A stretch of DNA of 7,432 nt, from IMG/VR virus record IMGVR_UViG_2548876951_000007; one strand, 5' to 3'. The DNA comes from a virus (lineage: Duplodnaviria; Heunggongvirae; Uroviricota; Caudoviricetes). The position numbers and the translations under genes are program-made. Below the pieces are notes generated by a model. That model was given only the letters and a program-made list of their open reading frames with translations, made no database searches and was not told where the DNA came from. This document shows, piece after piece, positions 36 to 6,435 of the stretch (positions within the stretch are counted from its first letter, which is position 1; each line of letters opens with the position of its first letter).

Positions 36-308
36 TTACCTCCAGATGCGTTGCTGATATGTGCGGGACGGACGCGGCGGGCGTTCGGAATAAGGGAGCC
101 TGACGGAAATTATCCAGTGTCGGAAGTCAGGACTGAGGCCTTTCTGAAACTGGTATCCACGTCTGCGGTAATTCTGAATCAGCCACTCGGCCTGTTCTTC
201 AGTGCATTGGTCATGCTGGTACCAGTCATATTTGAATGCGTGAGAGCGCCGTCCGTGTCTGCTGGCAGGGTCGGCATCAGAATTGTGGTGTTTGGTATTG
301 TGCGCCAT
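36..308 (-). CDS. hypothetical protein (about 90 aa from first ATG; track ORF opens at TTG 389)
   Basis: Minus-strand ORF with protein-like composition. The track start at 387-389 is TTG and lies inside the U-tract of the terminator at 381-406, so the first in-frame ATG (306-308) is the more plausible start, though its SD is weak (GAGA). No motif recognised. Confidence 0.3.
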   Translation of the reverse strand: MAHNTKHHNSDADPASRHGRRSHAFKYDWYQHDQCTEEQAEWLIQNYRRRGYQFQKGLSPDFRHWIISVRLPYSERPPRPSRTYQQRIWR

Positions 309-380
309 CGGTTGTCTCTGCTGGCGCAGCAGGTGCCAGTTGTTCAGGCTGGCGTGTGGATTGTAAACCAGAACGCCAGG

Positions 381-406
381 AAAAAACAAAACCCGCGAAG
401 CGGGTT
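381..406 (-). terminator. Rho-independent terminator downstream of the restriction endonuclease gene
   Basis: Forward 390-406 AACCCGCGAAGCGGGTT forms a perfect 7-bp GC-rich stem with a 3-nt loop. On the minus strand it is followed directly by UUUUGUUUUUU (forward 381-389), about 75 nt after the REase stop at 479-481. Confidence 0.6.
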
Positions 407-478
407 AGTAAAAATGTACTGAAGTCAATGACGTGCCATCACAGTTAAAATATGACAGACTCTATTTACGTAGAGATG

Positions 479-1357
479 TCAGACTGCAAGATCCAAGGGA
501 AGATCAGAAATATCCTTTAATCTTTTACCATTAACCATCACGGAAAGCATGTCAGCTGCATCGCTGAGCCCCAGTATTTCAACTGCTGATATAAGTTCAT
601 AAAGCGCAAAATGATACACGCAATCTATATCACCAGTACCAAGAGCAATAGACGCCAGACGACTTGGAGTAGGCTCAGCAGTAACAACCATTACATGAGG
701 GAGATTTCCCTTACGGTTGCGAATAAGATTTAATGCCTCAGAACGAGCATTCTGGGCCCGGTCGCTTCTTATTGTCCATTTGCAGGAAATACTTGCGTGT
801 AATATTGGTTTCCCACCATTCGAACTCCTGAGAGCTGACATGCGGGTAACAGAATCATCCACCAGTAATTCAGGACTGTTGATAACTTGATCACATTCAG
901 GTTCTCTTTCAACAATAATATCTGGTGAAATCGTATAATCACTCCCCAGTGCAGCAGCTAGCTGAGGATTACTTTTTGCAGCACTATCCAATGCTATAAG
1001 ATGGGCATATTGTTCATATTTAGCTATCTCTAATCTGTTTCTACCAGAAACCTGATGTACATTCCATTTTCCAGGGCGTAAGTGGCTGAGTTTAAAAAAG
1101 GTTTTTTCTATAAACTCTGCGCAGATACTCTCAAACTGATTACCAGATGTTTGCCCTGCAACACGTTCACCAATCGTTTCAGCCTGCAAGAAGCGAGCAA
1201 TTTCTCTTGCTATAGCTTTACTGTTTTTGTTACTGCTATCTGCGTTACTAACAACTCCGGCAGTATTAATTGTGAGCGTATTCAGTAACAATTGGGCATG
1301 AAACTCCTTTCTGGCTTCAGCAAAACCAACTATGCTGTCAACCAAATCTCCATTCAT
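479..1357 (-). CDS. Type II restriction endonuclease, NgoMIV/Cfr10I/Bse634I-like family (CCGG-core recognition expected)
   Basis: 292-aa ORF from ATG 1355-1357 (M46 of the track ORF), with AGGA about 9 nt upstream and starting 13 nt after the MTase stop. Contains SPDIIV (PD) and HASISCKW (S-x-K) followed by RSDRAQNARSE, which I recall as the variant PD...SxK active site of the NgoMIV/Cfr10I fold. The track start at 1492 would overlap the MTase gene by 120 nt and is less likely. Confidence 0.7.
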   Translation of the reverse strand: MNGDLVDSIVGFAEARKEFHAQLLLNTLTINTAGVVSNADSSNKNSKAIAREIARFLQAETIGERVAGQTSGNQFESICAEFIEKTFFKLSHLRPGKWNVHQVSGRNRLEIAKYEQYAHLIALDSAAKSNPQLAAALGSDYTISPDIIVEREPECDQVINSPELLVDDSVTRMSALRSSNGGKPILHASISCKWTIRSDRAQNARSEALNLIRNRKGNLPHVMVVTAEPTPSRLASIALGTGDIDCVYHFALYELISAVEILGLSDAADMLSVMVNGKRLKDISDLPLDLAV

Positions 1358-1370
1358 TTCTGGATTTCCT

Positions 1371-2495
1371 TCAGGCTGCTTGACTATTCTTACTGATGTT
1401 ATTCTTATACCGTCCCTGCAAAACTCCATACACATATTGTGCGATTTTTGCTGCAAATAGCGGTGGAACAGCATTCCCGATCTGCTTTGCAATCTCAGTT
1501 TTTGAACCGGTAAAAATGAAATTATCAGGAAAAGACATTAATCTCGCTGCCTCACGATGAGTTATTGGCCGATCCTCTTCCGGATGTAAATATCGCCCTT
1601 TCTCCGGTTTGAAAAACTCAGTACGAATCGTTACTGAAGGTCTGTCCCACCACAGACGTCCAAACAAATCGGTCCCTCCAGATTTCTTTTTTAGCCAGCA
1701 CGCCGGGGTTATATCAGGTCTTTTTTTCTGTAAATCGAAACGGTTACCTCCTGGTGGAACCGCTTTATATCGCTCCAGAGAAACAGGTGTGGGATTACGC
1801 CCAAAATGTAAGTTCAGCGGAGGAAGTTCATTACGAATATCAGTTCCAACAGGAGCAGGTAAGTCACCAATTGCATCACGCGTACAGACCCATTCAGGCA
1901 AAGCGACATCCTTATCAGGGGAACGATGCGTTGGTGCTGGCGGGAACGCCGGAATACTATGCACATCGAAGAGTTCTCGTTTGATACCGATTGCTATCGT
2001 TCGTTTTCTTGTCTGAGGTACTCCATAGTCAGCAGTATTCAACACCATTGGATTAAGCAGAATAAAGCCCATGGATTTCGCTCTAAACGTAATGTCCGCA
2101 AACTCATCGCTTATCAGCAATCCGGGGACATTTTCCATGACGAACATACAAGCCCTTGAACGCTCAATGACATCCATATAAGGCTCCCACAATGCTCTTC
2201 GGTGATCACCATAACGATTCTTATTCAATAAACTGAATCCCTGACACGGGGGGCCACCTATGACCACATCAGCCTCAGGAACAGTATTGCTGGATGCCCA
2301 CTCCTCAATATTTGCCTGAACTCCATGCAAACCAAAATTGGCATTGTAGGTATTTATAGCTGCAGCATTATTATCAATAGCAAGGATACTTTCAAAGTAG
2401 TCAGACATCTCTCCATGAAGAAAACCATAAGATAATCCACCTGCCCCACAAAAGAGGTCTATCACTCTGAATTTATTTAATTCTTTCATCCGCAT
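1371..2495 (-). CDS. DNA (cytosine-5)-methyltransferase, Type II R-M modification subunit
   Basis: 374 aa with canonical C5-MTase motifs in order: motif I DLFCGAGGLSYGF, motif IV GGPPCQGFS, motif VI ENVPGL, motif VIII VPQTRKRTIAIG, motif X QIGNAVPP. GAGG about 8 nt upstream of ATG 2495. Confidence 0.9.
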   Translation of the reverse strand: MRMKELNKFRVIDLFCGAGGLSYGFLHGEMSDYFESILAIDNNAAAINTYNANFGLHGVQANIEEWASSNTVPEADVVIGGPPCQGFSLLNKNRYGDHRRALWEPYMDVIERSRACMFVMENVPGLLISDEFADITFRAKSMGFILLNPMVLNTADYGVPQTRKRTIAIGIKRELFDVHSIPAFPPAPTHRSPDKDVALPEWVCTRDAIGDLPAPVGTDIRNELPPLNLHFGRNPTPVSLERYKAVPPGGNRFDLQKKRPDITPACWLKKKSGGTDLFGRLWWDRPSVTIRTEFFKPEKGRYLHPEEDRPITHREAARLMSFPDNFIFTGSKTEIAKQIGNAVPPLFAAKIAQYVYGVLQGRYKNNISKNSQAA

Positions 2496-2578
2496 CCATA
2501 TGCCTCAGATTAATGTTGAGCGTCTTACAGGACGCGTAATGTTAACTGGGGCTTTCTCTATCTGCCTTTTGGTGTTCA

Positions 2579-2603
2579 TGCCTGAGGCAGACAGCCTCAG
2601 GCA
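2579..2603 (-). promoter_or_regulatory. 9-bp-stem perfect palindrome (TGCCTGAGG-N7-CCTCAGGCA) between the QueH-like and MTase genes; operator or leader hairpin
   Basis: Seen directly in the sequence. No U-tract follows on either strand, so it is not a canonical intrinsic terminator. It sits immediately downstream of the candidate promoter at 2613-2641. Confidence 0.35.
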
Positions 2604-2612
2604 CCCGCAGCA

Positions 2613-2641
2613 ATTCTACTTAACTCACGTCACCTCGCCAA
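2613..2641 (-). promoter_or_regulatory. candidate sigma70 promoter for the MTase/REase genes
   Basis: On the minus strand: TTGGCG (forward 2636-2641), a 17-nt spacer, then TAGAAT (forward 2613-2618). Consensus match only, no experimental support. Confidence 0.3.
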
Positions 2642-2673
2642 TATGAAATCAATCAGAAAGGTGATCCATAAAA

Positions 2674-3360
2674 TCACTCCTTCTCTTCTTTTCCGTAGTG
2701 GAGTTGGCCAATTTTGATAAGAGGGCGTCCCTGAGATTTGCGGTGTAGATTGGTATCGCGCAGAGAATACACACAGCCACAATATTCCTGCTGATAGAAT
2801 TTTTCGCGCTTGCTGATTTCAATCATACGGGACGAGCCGCCCTGCTTGCGCCAGTTATAATCCCAGTACACCATACCCGGATAATGCGCAACAGCTCGCC
2901 GCCCACACTCGTTAATCTGCTGCATATTTTTCCAGCGTGAAATGCCCAGTGAACTGCTGATCACACTGAAACCATTTTCAGCAGCGTACAACGCTGTCCG
3001 CTCAAAACGCATGTCAAAACACATGGTACAACGGATCCCCCTCTCAGGCTCCCATTCCATTCCTTTGGCACGTTCAAACCAGTTGTCGGTGTCGTAATCA
3101 GCATCGATAAACGGCACGCCGTGTTGTTCAGCAAAGCGAATATTTTCATCCTTACGAATTAAATACTCTTTCTGAGGATGAATGTTCGGGTTGTAGAAAA
3201 AGATGGTGTAGTCGATTCCCGAGGCCTGAAGCGCCTCCATCACTTCACCGGAACATGGAGCACAGCAAGAGTGCAGTAGTAGTTTGTTTGCCCCGTTTGG
3301 GAGCTCCAATTTAGGCCGTTTGAAATCAGCAATAGTCATAAATATTTTTATTGGGGTCAT
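2674..3360 (-). CDS. queH: QueH-like (DUF208) epoxyqueuosine reductase family protein, putative Fe-S enzyme
   Basis: 228-aa ORF with an N-terminal [11 protein letters not shown] motif, a central [10 protein letters not shown] and a C-terminal EYCGCVYS. This Cys pattern matches what I recall of the QueH/DUF208 family. The start is uncertain: neither ATG 3360 nor ATG 3339 has a clear SD. Confidence 0.55.
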
Positions 3361-3513: not shown

Positions 3514-3939
3514 CTAGTAACGTCTAAAATACCTAACATTTCCTTGATAAAATGCCAGTACACGCTGCATAGCTTCGCTCTTCCGGCACTCGCGACAGAT
3601 TATGTTTAGGCGCCTGTCGTAGCGGCGTATTTCGCCGTCTGGTAATAGCCAGATAAGGTCCGGATCAACCACAGATGGTTTCTTCAGCTTTGCCCTTGAG
3701 AGTTTTTTGCGGGCGTTTTGCCAGTCCTTGCGCGCCTGCTCAGACGGGAATACTCCGTAACCGGAATTGTAAACATCACCACTGGCGGCCAGCTCCATGC
3801 ATAAACGACCGACAGACGCATGACTGACACCAATTTCATCCGATAACTGCCGAATCGTGCCTCGTCCGTTAAGGCGTACGAATTCCACGATCAGCCCTTT
3901 AATTTTTTCCCGCTCTTCTTGTGTAAAAACTTTTGCCAC
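3514..3939 (-). CDS. HTH-domain protein, function unknown (sits where a helicase loader is expected)
   Basis: 141-aa ORF starting at GTG 3937-3939, preceded by a strong SD (AGGAGGG, about 4 nt spacer), 38 nt downstream of the upstream replication-gene stop. Predicted HTH around TIRQLSDEIGVSHASVGRL; basic C-terminus. No DnaC/P-like Walker motifs. Confidence 0.5.
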   Translation of the reverse strand: MAKVFTQEEREKIKGLIVEFVRLNGRGTIRQLSDEIGVSHASVGRLCMELAASGDVYNSGYGVFPSEQARKDWQNARKKLSRAKLKKPSVVDPDLIWLLPDGEIRRYDRRLNIICRECRKSEAMQRVLAFYQGNVRYFRRY

Positions 3940-3979: not shown

Positions 3980-4942
3980 TTACCCCCTGAAGCCCGGCGG
4001 AATTTCAGTGTCCGGTTCAGAAATGTGATTCACGCAACGCTGCGCAGGTGAACGCCCCAGGCGGATAACCAGTTCATCCCATTTTTCCCGGAGTTTTGCC
4101 GGACTCATGATGTTTTTTACCCAGAACGAATCCCGCTGGAGACGCCCAAACATTTCACAAATTTGTCTGTGAGTTCTGCCATCCAGCATCCGCATTGTGC
4201 GAACGTCATTGGCCCATGCTGTCCAGTTGGGTTCTTTCGGTCTAGTGATCTCGCCATCATCGCTGGCCGCCTGCTCGTAAAGACTCACGATTCGTCCCCA
4301 GATCCACTGTGCGCACACCAAATCTTCCTGACTTCCCCACTGGCGTTTTTTCGCACTGAACACAACCGCGTCAGGGTGTCGGGTTAAAAAATCCTGTTCA
4401 GCCATCTGCGGGTCCGGTTGCGAAGCGTCCGGACAAGAAGATCTTTTATCTGACGGATCAGGTTTTAATACTGACGGATCGGGGTCAATCATCGCCCCCC
4501 TAATCGGCAGTTTTTTATCAACAGTTGATCCATCAAAATTTAACGGGTCAACCGTTGAGGGGTCAATATTTGACGGGTCAACTGTTAACGGGTCATTTTT
4601 TGCCGGGCTAATTTTTCTTTTCGGTTTATATGACTCACGCGCCGCCGCCGCAGCTGCTTCGAGTTTTTCCACATTAAGCCGATAGATATTGCTTACATTA
4701 CGCCCACCGACCTTACGCTCTTCCTTCGTCAGCCAGCCCTCTTTCGCCAGTTCTGCAATAGCCGATTTCACTGTGGATTCACTTCTTGCACCGATCTGAC
4801 GCCGGATAGTTTCAATGGCAGGCCATGACACGCCCTCGTCATTGCTGTAGTCTGCAAGACGGGCCATAACCGCCACCCTGGATAAGATCATGCCGGTGAA
4901 GGCGCACCCTTCCCAGACAAGACCATGAAGCTTGCTGCTCAT
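3980..4942 (-). CDS. phage replication initiation protein (O-like / YdaU-position), N-terminal winged-helix domain
   Basis: About 320 aa from ATG 4940-4942 (the track start at 4957 is GTG). The N-terminal segment WPAIETIRRQIGARSESTVKSAIAELAKEGWLTKEER resembles the HTH of phage/plasmid replication initiators. The central low-complexity VDP-repeat linker is encoded by the tandem 15-bp iterons. It lies immediately downstream of the YdaT-like gene, as in Rac. Confidence 0.6.
   Translation of the reverse strand: MSSKLHGLVWEGCAFTGMILSRVAVMARLADYSNDEGVSWPAIETIRRQIGARSESTVKSAIAELAKEGWLTKEERKVGGRNVSNIYRLNVEKLEAAAAAARESYKPKRKISPAKNDPLTVDPSNIDPSTVDPLNFDGSTVDKKLPIRGAMIDPDPSVLKPDPSDKRSSCPDASQPDPQMAEQDFLTRHPDAVVFSAKKRQWGSQEDLVCAQWIWGRIVSLYEQAASDDGEITRPKEPNWTAWANDVRTMRMLDGRTHRQICEMFGRLQRDSFWVKNIMSPAKLREKWDELVIRLGRSPAQRCVNHISEPDTEIPPGFRG
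4541..4615. repeat. five tandem 15-bp iterons (consensus about TRACGGGTCAAnnnT) inside the replication gene; putative origin
   Basis: GGGTCA/GGGCTA cores start at 4545, 4560, 4575, 4590 and 4605, an exact 15-bp period. A degenerate copy lies at 4481-4489. The adjacent 4505-4540 stretch is AT-rich and 4440-4530 holds four GATC sites. Confidence 0.6.
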
Positions 4943-4964
4943 AAAACCCCCGAACACCGTGCTT

Positions 4965-5390
4965 TTAGTGCATCACCACAGCATTCCCTGCCGGGCCGCC
5001 GCGATTCATCTGGTCATACAAAACAACCGCTGACGCAACAAAATCATCGACATCCTTCACCAGCCGATCCCTCCGTTCGACGATCTCACGGTAATATTCA
5101 GAACTGTGGCTGCGCATACGGGCCACCAGCAAAGGCGGCATCGCCTTTTCGATCGCCGGTAACAGAGCCTGCATTTTTTCAACAGCATCAGGGGTGTCTT
5201 TATCCAGCCAACGGAAAATTTTCTGGGTATTACGGGCCAGGGCTTCCGGATGGCTGTCGTCGTACAGTTCAGGGAACGTCATCCCCAGTTCGAAATAAGT
5301 CCGGGCTATTTCAGCTGCAGGAACTTTCTCACCATCAGGGTATGCCCAGGCATTCATCGCCATGCGGATGTGCTCATGTTTGATTTTCAT
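4965..5390 (-). CDS. ydaT: YdaT-like prophage protein
   Basis: 141-aa ORF with ATG at 5388-5390, overlapping the upstream Cro-like gene end by 17 nt (translational coupling). Size and position (third gene after the repressor, second in the cro-side operon) match Rac ydaT. Assigned by synteny and recalled similarity, not by search. Confidence 0.55.
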   Translation of the reverse strand: MKIKHEHIRMAMNAWAYPDGEKVPAAEIARTYFELGMTFPELYDDSHPEALARNTQKIFRWLDKDTPDAVEKMQALLPAIEKAMPPLLVARMRSHSSEYYREIVERRDRLVKDVDDFVASAVVLYDQMNRGGPAGNAVVMH

Positions 5391-5697
5391 GAATCATTTG
5401 CCTCTTGATGCTTCGGGTATGATCGTTTTCGTCATTTGGTTGCTTCATCGACATATTCTGCGAATAACATGACGAGCGTCGTAAGTATGTCCAATCAACA
5501 TCAGGACGAAGTTCTTCACACAGGACACCACCTTTTGTTGCTCGTTCAATCGCAGGACATCTCTCAGCAGGTAACTGACGTACACCTTTGATCCATTGAT
5601 TTACGCTTGGAGGAGATACACCTAAAAGCCTAGCCATTGCTGATTGCCCACCGACAACAGCACAAGCTCGTTTGAATGAATAGTTATCTTTTTTCAT
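5374..5697 (-). CDS. ydaS: Cro-like HTH DNA-binding protein (YdaS-like)
   Basis: 107 aa from ATG 5695-5697 with GGAG 10-13 nt upstream; the track start at 5718 is GTG and lies upstream of the predicted transcription start. HTH segment QSAMARLLGVSPPSVNQWIKGVRQLP. Transcribed divergently from the repressor gene. Confidence 0.65.
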   Translation of the reverse strand: MKKDNYSFKRACAVVGGQSAMARLLGVSPPSVNQWIKGVRQLPAERCPAIERATKGGVLCEELRPDVDWTYLRRSSCYSQNMSMKQPNDENDHTRSIKRQMIHENQT

Positions 5698-5724
5698 CGA
5701 ATGAACTCCAAAAAACACGCAACA

Positions 5725-5792
5725 ATATTAGGTTTAGCCTAATGAAATTGTCAATAGGCTATGCCTAATACATCGAGAGTAGGGATTGCCTA
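5725..5792 (-). promoter_or_regulatory. cro-side (PR-like) promoter with three operator-like dyads
   Basis: On the minus strand: -35 TTGACA (forward 5749-5754), an 18-nt spacer, -10 TAATAT (forward 5725-5730). Three TAGG-N5-CCTA dyads at 5729-5741, 5755-5767 and 5780-5792, with centres 26 and 25 bp apart. Confidence 0.5.
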
Positions 5793-5821
5793 ACGCGATG
5801 CGCATAGGAGACTATTAAGCA

Positions 5822-6298
5822 ATGCTTAGTGGTAAAGACTTAGGCCGAGCGATAGAGCAGGCCATTAACAAAAAAATTGCATCAGGAGCCGTCAAATCAA
5901 AGGCGGAAATCGCACGTCATTTCAAAGTCCAACCACCATCAATCCATGACTGGATTAAGAAAGGTTCGATAAGTAAAGACAAACTTCCAGAACTATGGCG
6001 TTTCTTTTCTGATGTGGTTGGTCCAGAGCATTGGGGGCTTAACGAATACCCCATACCAACCCCATCCACTTCAGATACAAAAAGTGAACTTTTAGACATA
6101 AACAGCCTTTATCAAGCCGCCTCTGATGAAAAAAGAGCAATTGTGGCTTTCATCTTATCTGGAAATGCTACGGAGCCTAGTTGGGTTGATCATGACGTTC
6201 GCGCCTACATTGCCGCAATGGAAATGAAGGTAGCTAACTATCTGAAAAATCAAGAATCAAAACGGAAAAGCCAGAACATCACCAAGACAGGAACTTAA
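5822..6298 (+). CDS. racR: prophage repressor, RacR-like HTH protein
   Basis: 158-aa ORF with an N-terminal HTH (SKAEIARHFKVQPPSIHDWIKKG), divergent from the Cro-like gene and flanked by operator clusters. Length and synteny match Rac racR. Confidence 0.65.
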   Translation: MLSGKDLGRAIEQAINKKIASGAVKSKAEIARHFKVQPPSIHDWIKKGSISKDKLPELWRFFSDVVGPEHWGLNEYPIPTPSTSDTKSELLDINSLYQAASDEKRAIVAFILSGNATEPSWVDHDVRAYIAAMEMKVANYLKNQESKRKSQNITKTGT

Positions 6299-6374: not shown

Positions 6375-6435
6375 TAGGTTGCGCCCAGATTATTAGGCAT
6401 AGCCTATTGACAAGTAATTAGGCATTTCCTATAGT
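6375..6435 (+). promoter_or_regulatory. rightward (PL-like) promoter with three operator-like dyads
   Basis: -35 TTGACA 6407-6412, a 17-nt spacer, -10 TATAGT 6430-6435. TAGG-N5-CCTA dyads at 6394-6406 and 6419-6431, plus an imperfect one (TAGG-N5-CCCA) at 6375-6387. Nearly identical to the cro-side promoter but in mirror orientation. Confidence 0.5.

Follow-up and report, generated by a model that had tools for sequence, protein, structure and literature searches.

A probable GCCGGC-directed restriction-modification pair in the place of hok in a Rac-like prophage of Escherichia coli

We have analysed a stretch of DNA of 7,432 nucleotides (nt), hereafter the window (IMG/VR record IMGVR_UViG_2548876951_000007), which covers the region from immunity to nin in a Rac-like lambdoid prophage of Escherichia coli. 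It carries a gene for a C5-cytosine DNA methyltransferase (MTase) followed by a gene for a restriction endonuclease (REase) of the NgoMIV family. On the sequence evidence, we consider it highly probable that the two genes form a functional Type II restriction-modification (R-M) system, a "moron" of the prophage, that has replaced a hok locus and probably uses the hok promoter. The REase would recognise GCCGGC and cut it as G/CCGGC, and the MTase would modify a cytosine in GCCGGC, or in a sub-sequence of this site, and thereby protect the DNA of the host and the prophage. Phage or plasmid DNA that enters unmodified should then be restricted, and the prophage may also be stabilised post-segregationally; we infer a role in defence or addiction. 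It is well established that prophages can carry Type II R-M systems and defence morons.

A previous sequence-only reading of this DNA had described a complete Type II pair, the MTase gene before the REase gene, 13 nt apart and in the same orientation, with canonical C5 motifs in the MTase and the PD...SxK signature of the CCGG group in the REase, and these points were borne out. The two products matched PF00145 and PF09015, and the PADLOC models MTase_II and REase_II were both matched by the pair. The layout is the orthodox Type II one, in which separate M and R genes adjoin each other and are co-oriented. With coordinates given throughout as those of the window, in which both genes lie on the minus strand, the parts of the pair are as follows.

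1371..2495, minus strand: MTase open reading frame (ORF), 374 amino acids (aa) from ATG 2495
1358..1370, minus strand: intergenic spacer of 13 nt with the REase Shine-Dalgarno AGGA (AGGAAATCCAGAA before ATG 1357), read from the sequence
479..1357, minus strand: NgoMIV-family Type II endonuclease of 292 aa, predicted site G/CCGGC

In the RefSeq annotation, the MTase starts at the in-frame ATG 2489, which gives 372 aa. The mechanical ORF of the REase spans 479..1492, and its true start is ATG 1357, the resulting 292 aa being the length of its homologues. The stop codon of the MTase occupies 1371-1373 and the REase ATG stands exactly 13 nt further on; this spacing and the M-first order would allow co-transcription. 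The ORF list of the window holds no extra ORF in or beside the pair that could be a C-protein gene, and the MTase has no N-terminal helix-turn-helix extension, motif I standing already at residue 13.

The REase matched the Pfam family PF09015 (NgoMIV_restric) with an E-value of 6e-127 over model positions 1-275 of 275, and it matched NgoMIV in the PDB (1FIU/4ABT) with an E-value of 1e-118, 185 of 281 residues (66%) being identical to 1fiu_A. It is also 65% identical to the product of the REase gene in Neisseria gonorrhoeae DSM 9188. The active site can be seen as PD146 ... S191-C-K193 ... E207, and D146, S191, K193, E207 and E76 align with D140, S185, K187, E201 and E70 of NgoMIV. The stretch R197-S-D199-R200 (RxDR) aligns with R191, D193 and R194 of NgoMIV, and Q69, D40 and R233 align with Q63, D34 and R227, all of them conserved; D34 and R227 of NgoMIV are reportedly contacts to the outer base pair. 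In the CCGG family, the active site has the form PDx46-53Kx13E with an upstream Glu, and the RxDR stretch reads CCGG (PMC3413111). Unlike Bse634I, NgoMIV forms a hydrogen-bond network to the outer G:C pair in which Gln63 takes part (PMC3413111). Because the catalytic residues, the RxDR stretch and the outer G:C contact residues of NgoMIV are conserved, we predict with high confidence that the site of the window REase is G/CCGGC. The specificity of the system had been called unknown, which, for the REase, was too pessimistic.

The enzyme had also been placed in an NgoMIV/Cfr10I family, and this assignment held in part. The NgoMIV half stands at 65-66% identity, but neither Cfr10I nor Bse634I gave a sequence match in a phmmer search of all PDB chains at E<=1, in which NgoMIV was the sole hit. 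NgoMIV acts as a Type IIF tetramer bound to two sites, and from the 65% identity the window REase is expected to behave in the same way. Cfr10I and Bse634I (R/CCGGY) and SgrAI share the PDx46-53Kx13E site and the RxDR stretch and are without the outer-pair hydrogen-bond network of NgoMIV (PMC3413111), whereas the matching residues are kept in the window REase. Accordingly, both the lack of similarity and the presence of the outer-pair contact residues set the REase apart from the Cfr10I/Bse634I subfamily. A specificity that differs from GCCGGC or is broader, either RCCGGY for the REase or a CCGG or CpG-containing subsite for the MTase, seems improbable to us. The REase is 34% diverged from NgoMIV, which leaves some room for such a change; on the other hand, Q69, D40, R233 and the RxDR stretch are conserved, and the degeneracy of Bse634I comes from its lack of outer-pair contacts (PMC3413111).

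The MTase also bears on this alternative. The protein matched PF00145 with an E-value of 4e-54 over residues 9-353, matched TIGR00675 too, and is 99% identical to a RefSeq "DNA cytosine methyltransferase [E. coli]". In the 372-aa numbering, its motifs are I FCGAGG (13), IV PPCQGFS (80), VI ENV (119), VIII QTRKR (159), IX REAARLMSFPD (312) and X GNAVPP (338), and by these motifs it is a canonical C5-cytosine enzyme. It is not an orthologue of M.NgoMIV, to which it shows 22% identity (E 3e-13) in the common C5 core only, and the gene upstream of the REase in N. gonorrhoeae encodes a C5-MTase of 312 aa, compared with 372 aa here. Being unrelated to M.NgoMIV beyond the C5 fold, and having a C-terminal part that gave DNMT1-like matches in the PDB search, the MTase could read another motif, and its family is found with an unrelated HNH nuclease elsewhere. 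A broader MTase motif, however, would include GCCGGC among its protected sites and leave the overall picture as it is.

We scanned 84 related loci, 80 of them from a scan of species-representative genomes and the others L005-L008. An MTase of the M.NgoMIV type lies upstream of the NgoMIV-family REase in 71 of the 84. The 372-aa type occurs, as in the window, only in the enterobacterial clade among these loci (L005 and the Cronobacter loci L006-L008). The 372-aa family itself is widespread across Gammaproteobacteria. Members at about 78-85% identity lie upstream of NgoMIV-type REases in Klebsiella, Cronobacter and an uncultured lambdoid phage, and members at 69-77% identity lie upstream of an unrelated HNH nuclease of about 327 aa, at the following positions in the respective loci.

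Locus L089, 4654-5640: HNH nuclease partner
Locus L090, 5147-6130: HNH nuclease partner
Locus L091, 5088-6068: HNH nuclease partner
Locus L093, 4100-5092: HNH nuclease partner

Two of these four loci (Yersinia, Psychromonas) adjoin P2-type (GPA) replication genes, and the rest are from Edwardsiella and Salinicola. The HNH partner matched only generic HNH/McrA-like models. In the HNH-paired homologues, the target-recognition region (residues 166-312) is 73-78% conserved, which is the level of the catalytic core. Since this region is conserved as well as the core, the 372-aa family probably keeps a single specificity, which would have to cover GCCGGC. The HNH partner may itself be a restriction enzyme, so far uncharacterised, whose site is related to GCCGGC. 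These loci illustrate the modular shuffling of R-M systems: NgoMIV-type nucleases occur with either of two unrelated C5-methylases, and the 372-aa methylases with nucleases of either the PD-(D/E)xK or the HNH kind, which are unrelated too.

The R-M genes lie in a cassette that takes the place of the mok/hok coding region, the sok promoter and the fold-back (fbi) element of a hokD/hokW-type locus. Its junctions were set by alignment to hokD loci and to phage HannyBb. The elements concerned are listed here.

415..2500, minus strand: R-M cassette, about 2.09 kb, 42-44% G+C, foreign
2501..2606, minus strand: hok leader remnant of 106 nt, with the first stem-loop, the Sok-target stem-loop and the mok Shine-Dalgarno GAGG (2506-2503)
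2613..2641, minus strand: hok-type sigma-70 promoter, TTGGCG-17 nt-TAGAAT, 9/12 match in the promoter scan
390..406, minus strand: terminator, stem AACCCGC / GCGGGTT and T-run, about 70 nt past the REase stop

At the upstream junction, homology to the hok locus runs through ...CATTAATCTGAGGC / ...AATCTGAGGC (window 2501) and then stops, and homology to the native R-M locus L005 begins at GGATGCGG (2498), about 10 nt before the native ATG. At the downstream junction, homology to the hok locus comes back only at the terminator hairpin, at about 414. The Rfam model RF01794, which represents the sense strand of the hok mRNA leader as far as the hok AUG, scored 61 bits at 2606-2426, just above its gathering score of 59, although the true alignment covers only model positions 1 to about 88; an intact hokD locus with the same flanks scored 110.6 bits. 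The ORF list of the window holds no hok-like ORF, and both mok and hok are gone. L003, a hok-bearing locus, has its sok promoter (TTGCCT-17-TAACCT) in a segment that is deleted in the window, and the 3' fold-back (fbi), whose sequence is complementary to the 5' end, has been lost as well. A residual sok promoter was sought on the plus strand at 2420-2520 and dismissed, the matches being only 7/12 and at chance level. Because the mok/hok reading frames, the sok promoter and the fbi element, all present in hokD/hokW-sokW loci, are absent here, no Hok/Sok function remains. What the window shares with those loci is the position in the prophage, the promoter, the first 106 nt or so of the leader and the terminator.

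In a search of 50,697 phage records, only window 2502-2671 matched, the hits being Rac-type and other lambdoid phages, and in phage HannyBb the matching segment lies directly upstream of a "MokW-like host killing protein". Isolated phages with the R-M pair were not recovered, as no nucleotide match went beyond the hok leader; the search of phages with the R-M proteins gave one metagenomic phage contig at 56% identity.

The terminator aligns with the 3' end of the hokD/hokW loci (L003, L002) and the preceding 60 nt or so do not. The strong terminator that had been noticed after the pair is thus present at 406-390, but by this alignment it is inherited from the replaced hok locus and is no part of the cassette. 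We discarded an Rfam match to RyhB at 383-440 (E 0.53; 24 bits, the gathering score being 55), which is no more than the terminator hairpin.

No direct or inverted border repeats were found at the cassette ends. A 21-nt, 81% complementary pair at 465-485/2399-2419 was considered in terms of transposition-type borders and set aside, as it lies inside the cassette and is probably due to chance. Illegitimate recombination is the simplest origin for the cassette. By comparison with the related loci, the 2.1-kb M-R cassette has displaced the mok/hok/sok core between the replication/QueH genes and the DUF968-RusA-Q genes. R-M and hok/sok both belong to classes described as addiction modules. At the equivalent place of Sp5, hokW-sokW is an experimentally validated type I toxin-antitoxin system (PMC8621323). 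The hok slot may serve more generally as a place where lambdoid prophages exchange addiction or defence cargo, through recombination in the conserved leader and terminator. The locus is a natural example in which an R-M system displaces hok/sok at base-pair precision and captures its promoter, leader and terminator.

The place of the junctions bears directly on expression. The cassette keeps only about 10 nt of the sequence that precedes the native ATG, so phage DNA has to supply the transcription start for M and R. The enterobacterial relatives are not behind a hok leader and keep an upstream region of 170-620 bp, which the E. coli cassette is without. The upstream element of these native loci (L005/Cronobacter: TATACAGC.T.AAAATATG.TAAATT) is absent from the window, and the Klebsiella prophage MTases are preceded by a related GTATACGTACAG element. 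By this comparison, the native promoter region has been lost from the cassette. The -10 of the retained hok promoter ends 7 nt short of the first base of the leader (2606), and the -10 region is identical in the hok-bearing loci L003 and L002 and in the R-M-bearing locus L004. We consider this promoter to be probably the likelier source of M-R expression in the lysogen. Transcription would then run from a constitutive hok promoter through the 106-nt hok leader, and translation would use the mok ribosome-binding site, its GAGG standing 7 nt before ATG 2495 and 13 nt before ATG 2489. Upon induction, read-through from the early operon could add to M-R expression.

A rival arrangement extends the sequence-only reading, which put the pair at the end of the early operon and allowed for read-through upon induction: M and R would be the last cargo of that operon, would be expressed mainly by such read-through and would have a strong terminator of their own. 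We find this doubtful, although several observations agree with it. The DNA is indeed a lambdoid, Rac-like prophage in which the pair is co-oriented with the cro-side operon, every gene from ydaS (5718) to position 36 lying on the same strand; the terminator scan gave no terminator-like site in the stretch from QueH to the leader and the MTase; and a terminator does follow the REase. On the other hand, the strand continues in annotated relatives past the pair into a 92-aa ORF, DUF968, RusA and the antiterminator Q, so that by this comparison the pair lies in the middle of the delayed-early (nin-like) region and not at its end. The terminator is that of the hok locus, and the hok promoter and leader stand directly upstream of the MTase. 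In addition, general R-M biology suggests that an R-M system made only upon induction would leave the chromosome of the lysogen unmethylated when the REase appears, which would be lethal. Early read-through may contribute, but in the repressed lysogen the hok promoter is likelier to drive the pair.

The leader keeps most of the Sok-target hairpin. If M and R are wired to the hok promoter and the mok ribosome-binding site, Sok RNAs from sibling hok/sok loci on other prophages or plasmids of the cell could modulate both genes and couple two otherwise independent addiction systems, which we regard as a long shot. We also folded the chimeric leader, in which, at 2489-2545, the MTase AUGs (GGAUGCGGAUG) pair with CAUUACGCGUCC of the former Sok-target hairpin over 11 bp including G-U, with z = -3.2 for the whole segment. 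This fold of a single sequence, without covariation, was not taken as evidence; the pairing may throttle MTase translation or be due to chance. Within the MTase gene, towards its 5' end, stands a further promoter-like site (minus strand, 2367-2395; 10/12, TTGAAA-17-AATAAT). Transcripts from it would hold the REase without the MTase start, but it probably reflects no more than AT-rich sequence.

In terms of function, both genes were compared with the 85-89% identical pair of L005, and dN/dS (the ratio of non-synonymous to synonymous divergence) was about 0.04 for R and for M. As dS was near saturation, the ratio is approximate, with dN far below dS. M and R have stayed together in the relatives from Klebsiella, Cronobacter and an uncultured lambdoid phage, a linkage conserved in four genera, and RefSeq annotates intact coding sequences as "DNA cytosine methyltransferase" and "NgoMIV family type II restriction endonuclease". 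Because dN/dS is about 0.04 for both, the comparison argues for purifying selection and for two functional genes. An inactive or silent REase, which would make the locus an orphan (epigenetic) methyltransferase left by a decayed R-M system, is highly improbable in our view. Such orphan MTases are common in prophages and the native promoter region was lost on insertion, but the REase is full length with its catalytic residues intact, its dN/dS against L005 is low, the linkage to the MTase persists across several genera, and its coding sequence is annotated as intact.

Several points weigh against a functional, GCCGGC-directed system expressed from the hok promoter. The 60 E. coli copies that we found are near-identical, so their intactness says little on selection within E. 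coli. Our search of the literature for an NgoMIV-type system in prophages of E. coli or O157, or for a GCCGGC methylome, found nothing relevant. The MTase is non-orthologous to M.NgoMIV, so its motif and target base follow only from the need to protect the REase site. The hok promoter matches the consensus at only 9/12 positions, and promoter-like sites in the window do not exceed those of shuffled sequence. Finally, avoidance of GCCGGC was rejected as evidence of specificity, the counts being too small: the window has 0 sites against 1.1-1.3 expected, and the 20-kb prophage segments have 0 against 3.9-4.9 expected in L001 and 4 against 4.0-6.7 in L004.

We examined the distribution of the cassette in 5,426 complete E. 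coli genomes with a query that included 20 nt of the hok leader. The cassette was present in 60 genomes, once per genome and always in the chromosome, with at least 99% identity in 59 carriers and 97.4% in one. The carriers include many O157:H7 isolates from cattle and humans, O111:H11, O103:H2, O39:NM, and commensal and clinical strains. At least 647 genomes have the flanks of the cassette at close spacing, and hokD lies between them in the best matches listed. At least 80% of the whole window was matched in only 37 genomes. In L004, an identical leader-M-R unit stands in a prophage with another repressor, other replication genes and other upstream neighbours. Because this backbone differs, we consider that the leader-M-R unit moves from one lambdoid backbone to another, and homologous recombination between conserved flanks is the presumed route. 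With its predicted GCCGGC 5-methylcytosine (5mC) specificity, the system would contribute to the restriction barrier in about 1% of E. coli genomes, which is relevant in the carrier lineages to phage susceptibility, transformation and horizontal transfer.

Compared with the NgoMIV system of N. gonorrhoeae, the window has an orthologous REase with the same PD...SxK...E site, RxDR stretch and outer G:C contacts, and the gonococcal system likewise has M before R and 5mC modification (M.NgoMIV/NgoAIV; PMC6789123). The two differ in that the gonococcal MTase belongs to another C5 lineage and its genes lie in the chromosome between housekeeping genes, whereas the pair here is in a prophage and fused to a hok leader. 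Closer relatives are the enterobacterial pairs of Klebsiella michiganensis prophages, the Cronobacter dublinensis chromosome and L005, whose proteins are 78-89% identical to those of the window and whose M and R genes lie 9-13 nt apart. The Klebsiella and L005 pairs are likewise in lambdoid prophages, between replication genes and DUF968/Q. The family assignment is already made automatically in RefSeq and current concepts are unchanged; the value of the locus lies in its annotation and in a tidy evolutionary case, a precise replacement of hok/sok with a non-orthologous MTase partner.

In the Klebsiella prophages L094-L096 (about 4308-7497), a DinI-like gene lies upstream and a gene for a LexA_DNA_bind-domain protein downstream of the M-R pair, and a large dCMP-deaminase-domain protein is encoded near the pair in two Klebsiella loci. 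The pre-Q region of these Klebsiella prophages seems to gather defence- or SOS-related cargo.

The other genes of the window are the following.

5822-6298, plus strand: racR, a 158-aa RacR-like repressor
5374-5718, minus strand: ydaS/cro-like gene, YdaS_toxin Pfam match
4965-5390, minus strand: ydaT, YdaT_toxin Pfam match
3980-4957, minus strand: O-like replication gene
3514-3939, minus strand: DUF977 gene
2674-3360, minus strand: QueH (PF02677, E 5e-66, full length)
36-389, minus strand: ORF

The racR/ydaS/ydaT immunity module occupies 5374-6298, with the repressor divergent from ydaS/ydaT and with promoter-like sites facing each other at 5754-5725 (minus strand) and with an 11/12 match at 6407-6435 (plus strand). 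Relative to L001 (CEA106S, 9961-11497), the closest annotated prophage, the window is without the DUF1627 and ATP-binding (ydaV-like) genes, which are missing between the O-like gene and DUF977; because of this, the best genome matches of the window are split into at least two pieces. QueH, an epoxyqueuosine reductase that acts in tRNA-queuosine maturation, is an unexpected cargo of a lambdoid prophage and lies directly upstream of the hok slot; the protein (WP_000150294.1) is also annotated in the related prophages L001 and L003. Inside the O-like gene, 4518-4607 (and 4450-4483) holds five overlapping copies of a TCAAC.GTTGA.GGG-like repeat with a periodicity of 15 nt, which coincide with a repeated DPS/T-x-V/I-DP peptide stretch. 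These repeats look like an iteron-type origin inside the initiator gene, as in lambda O.

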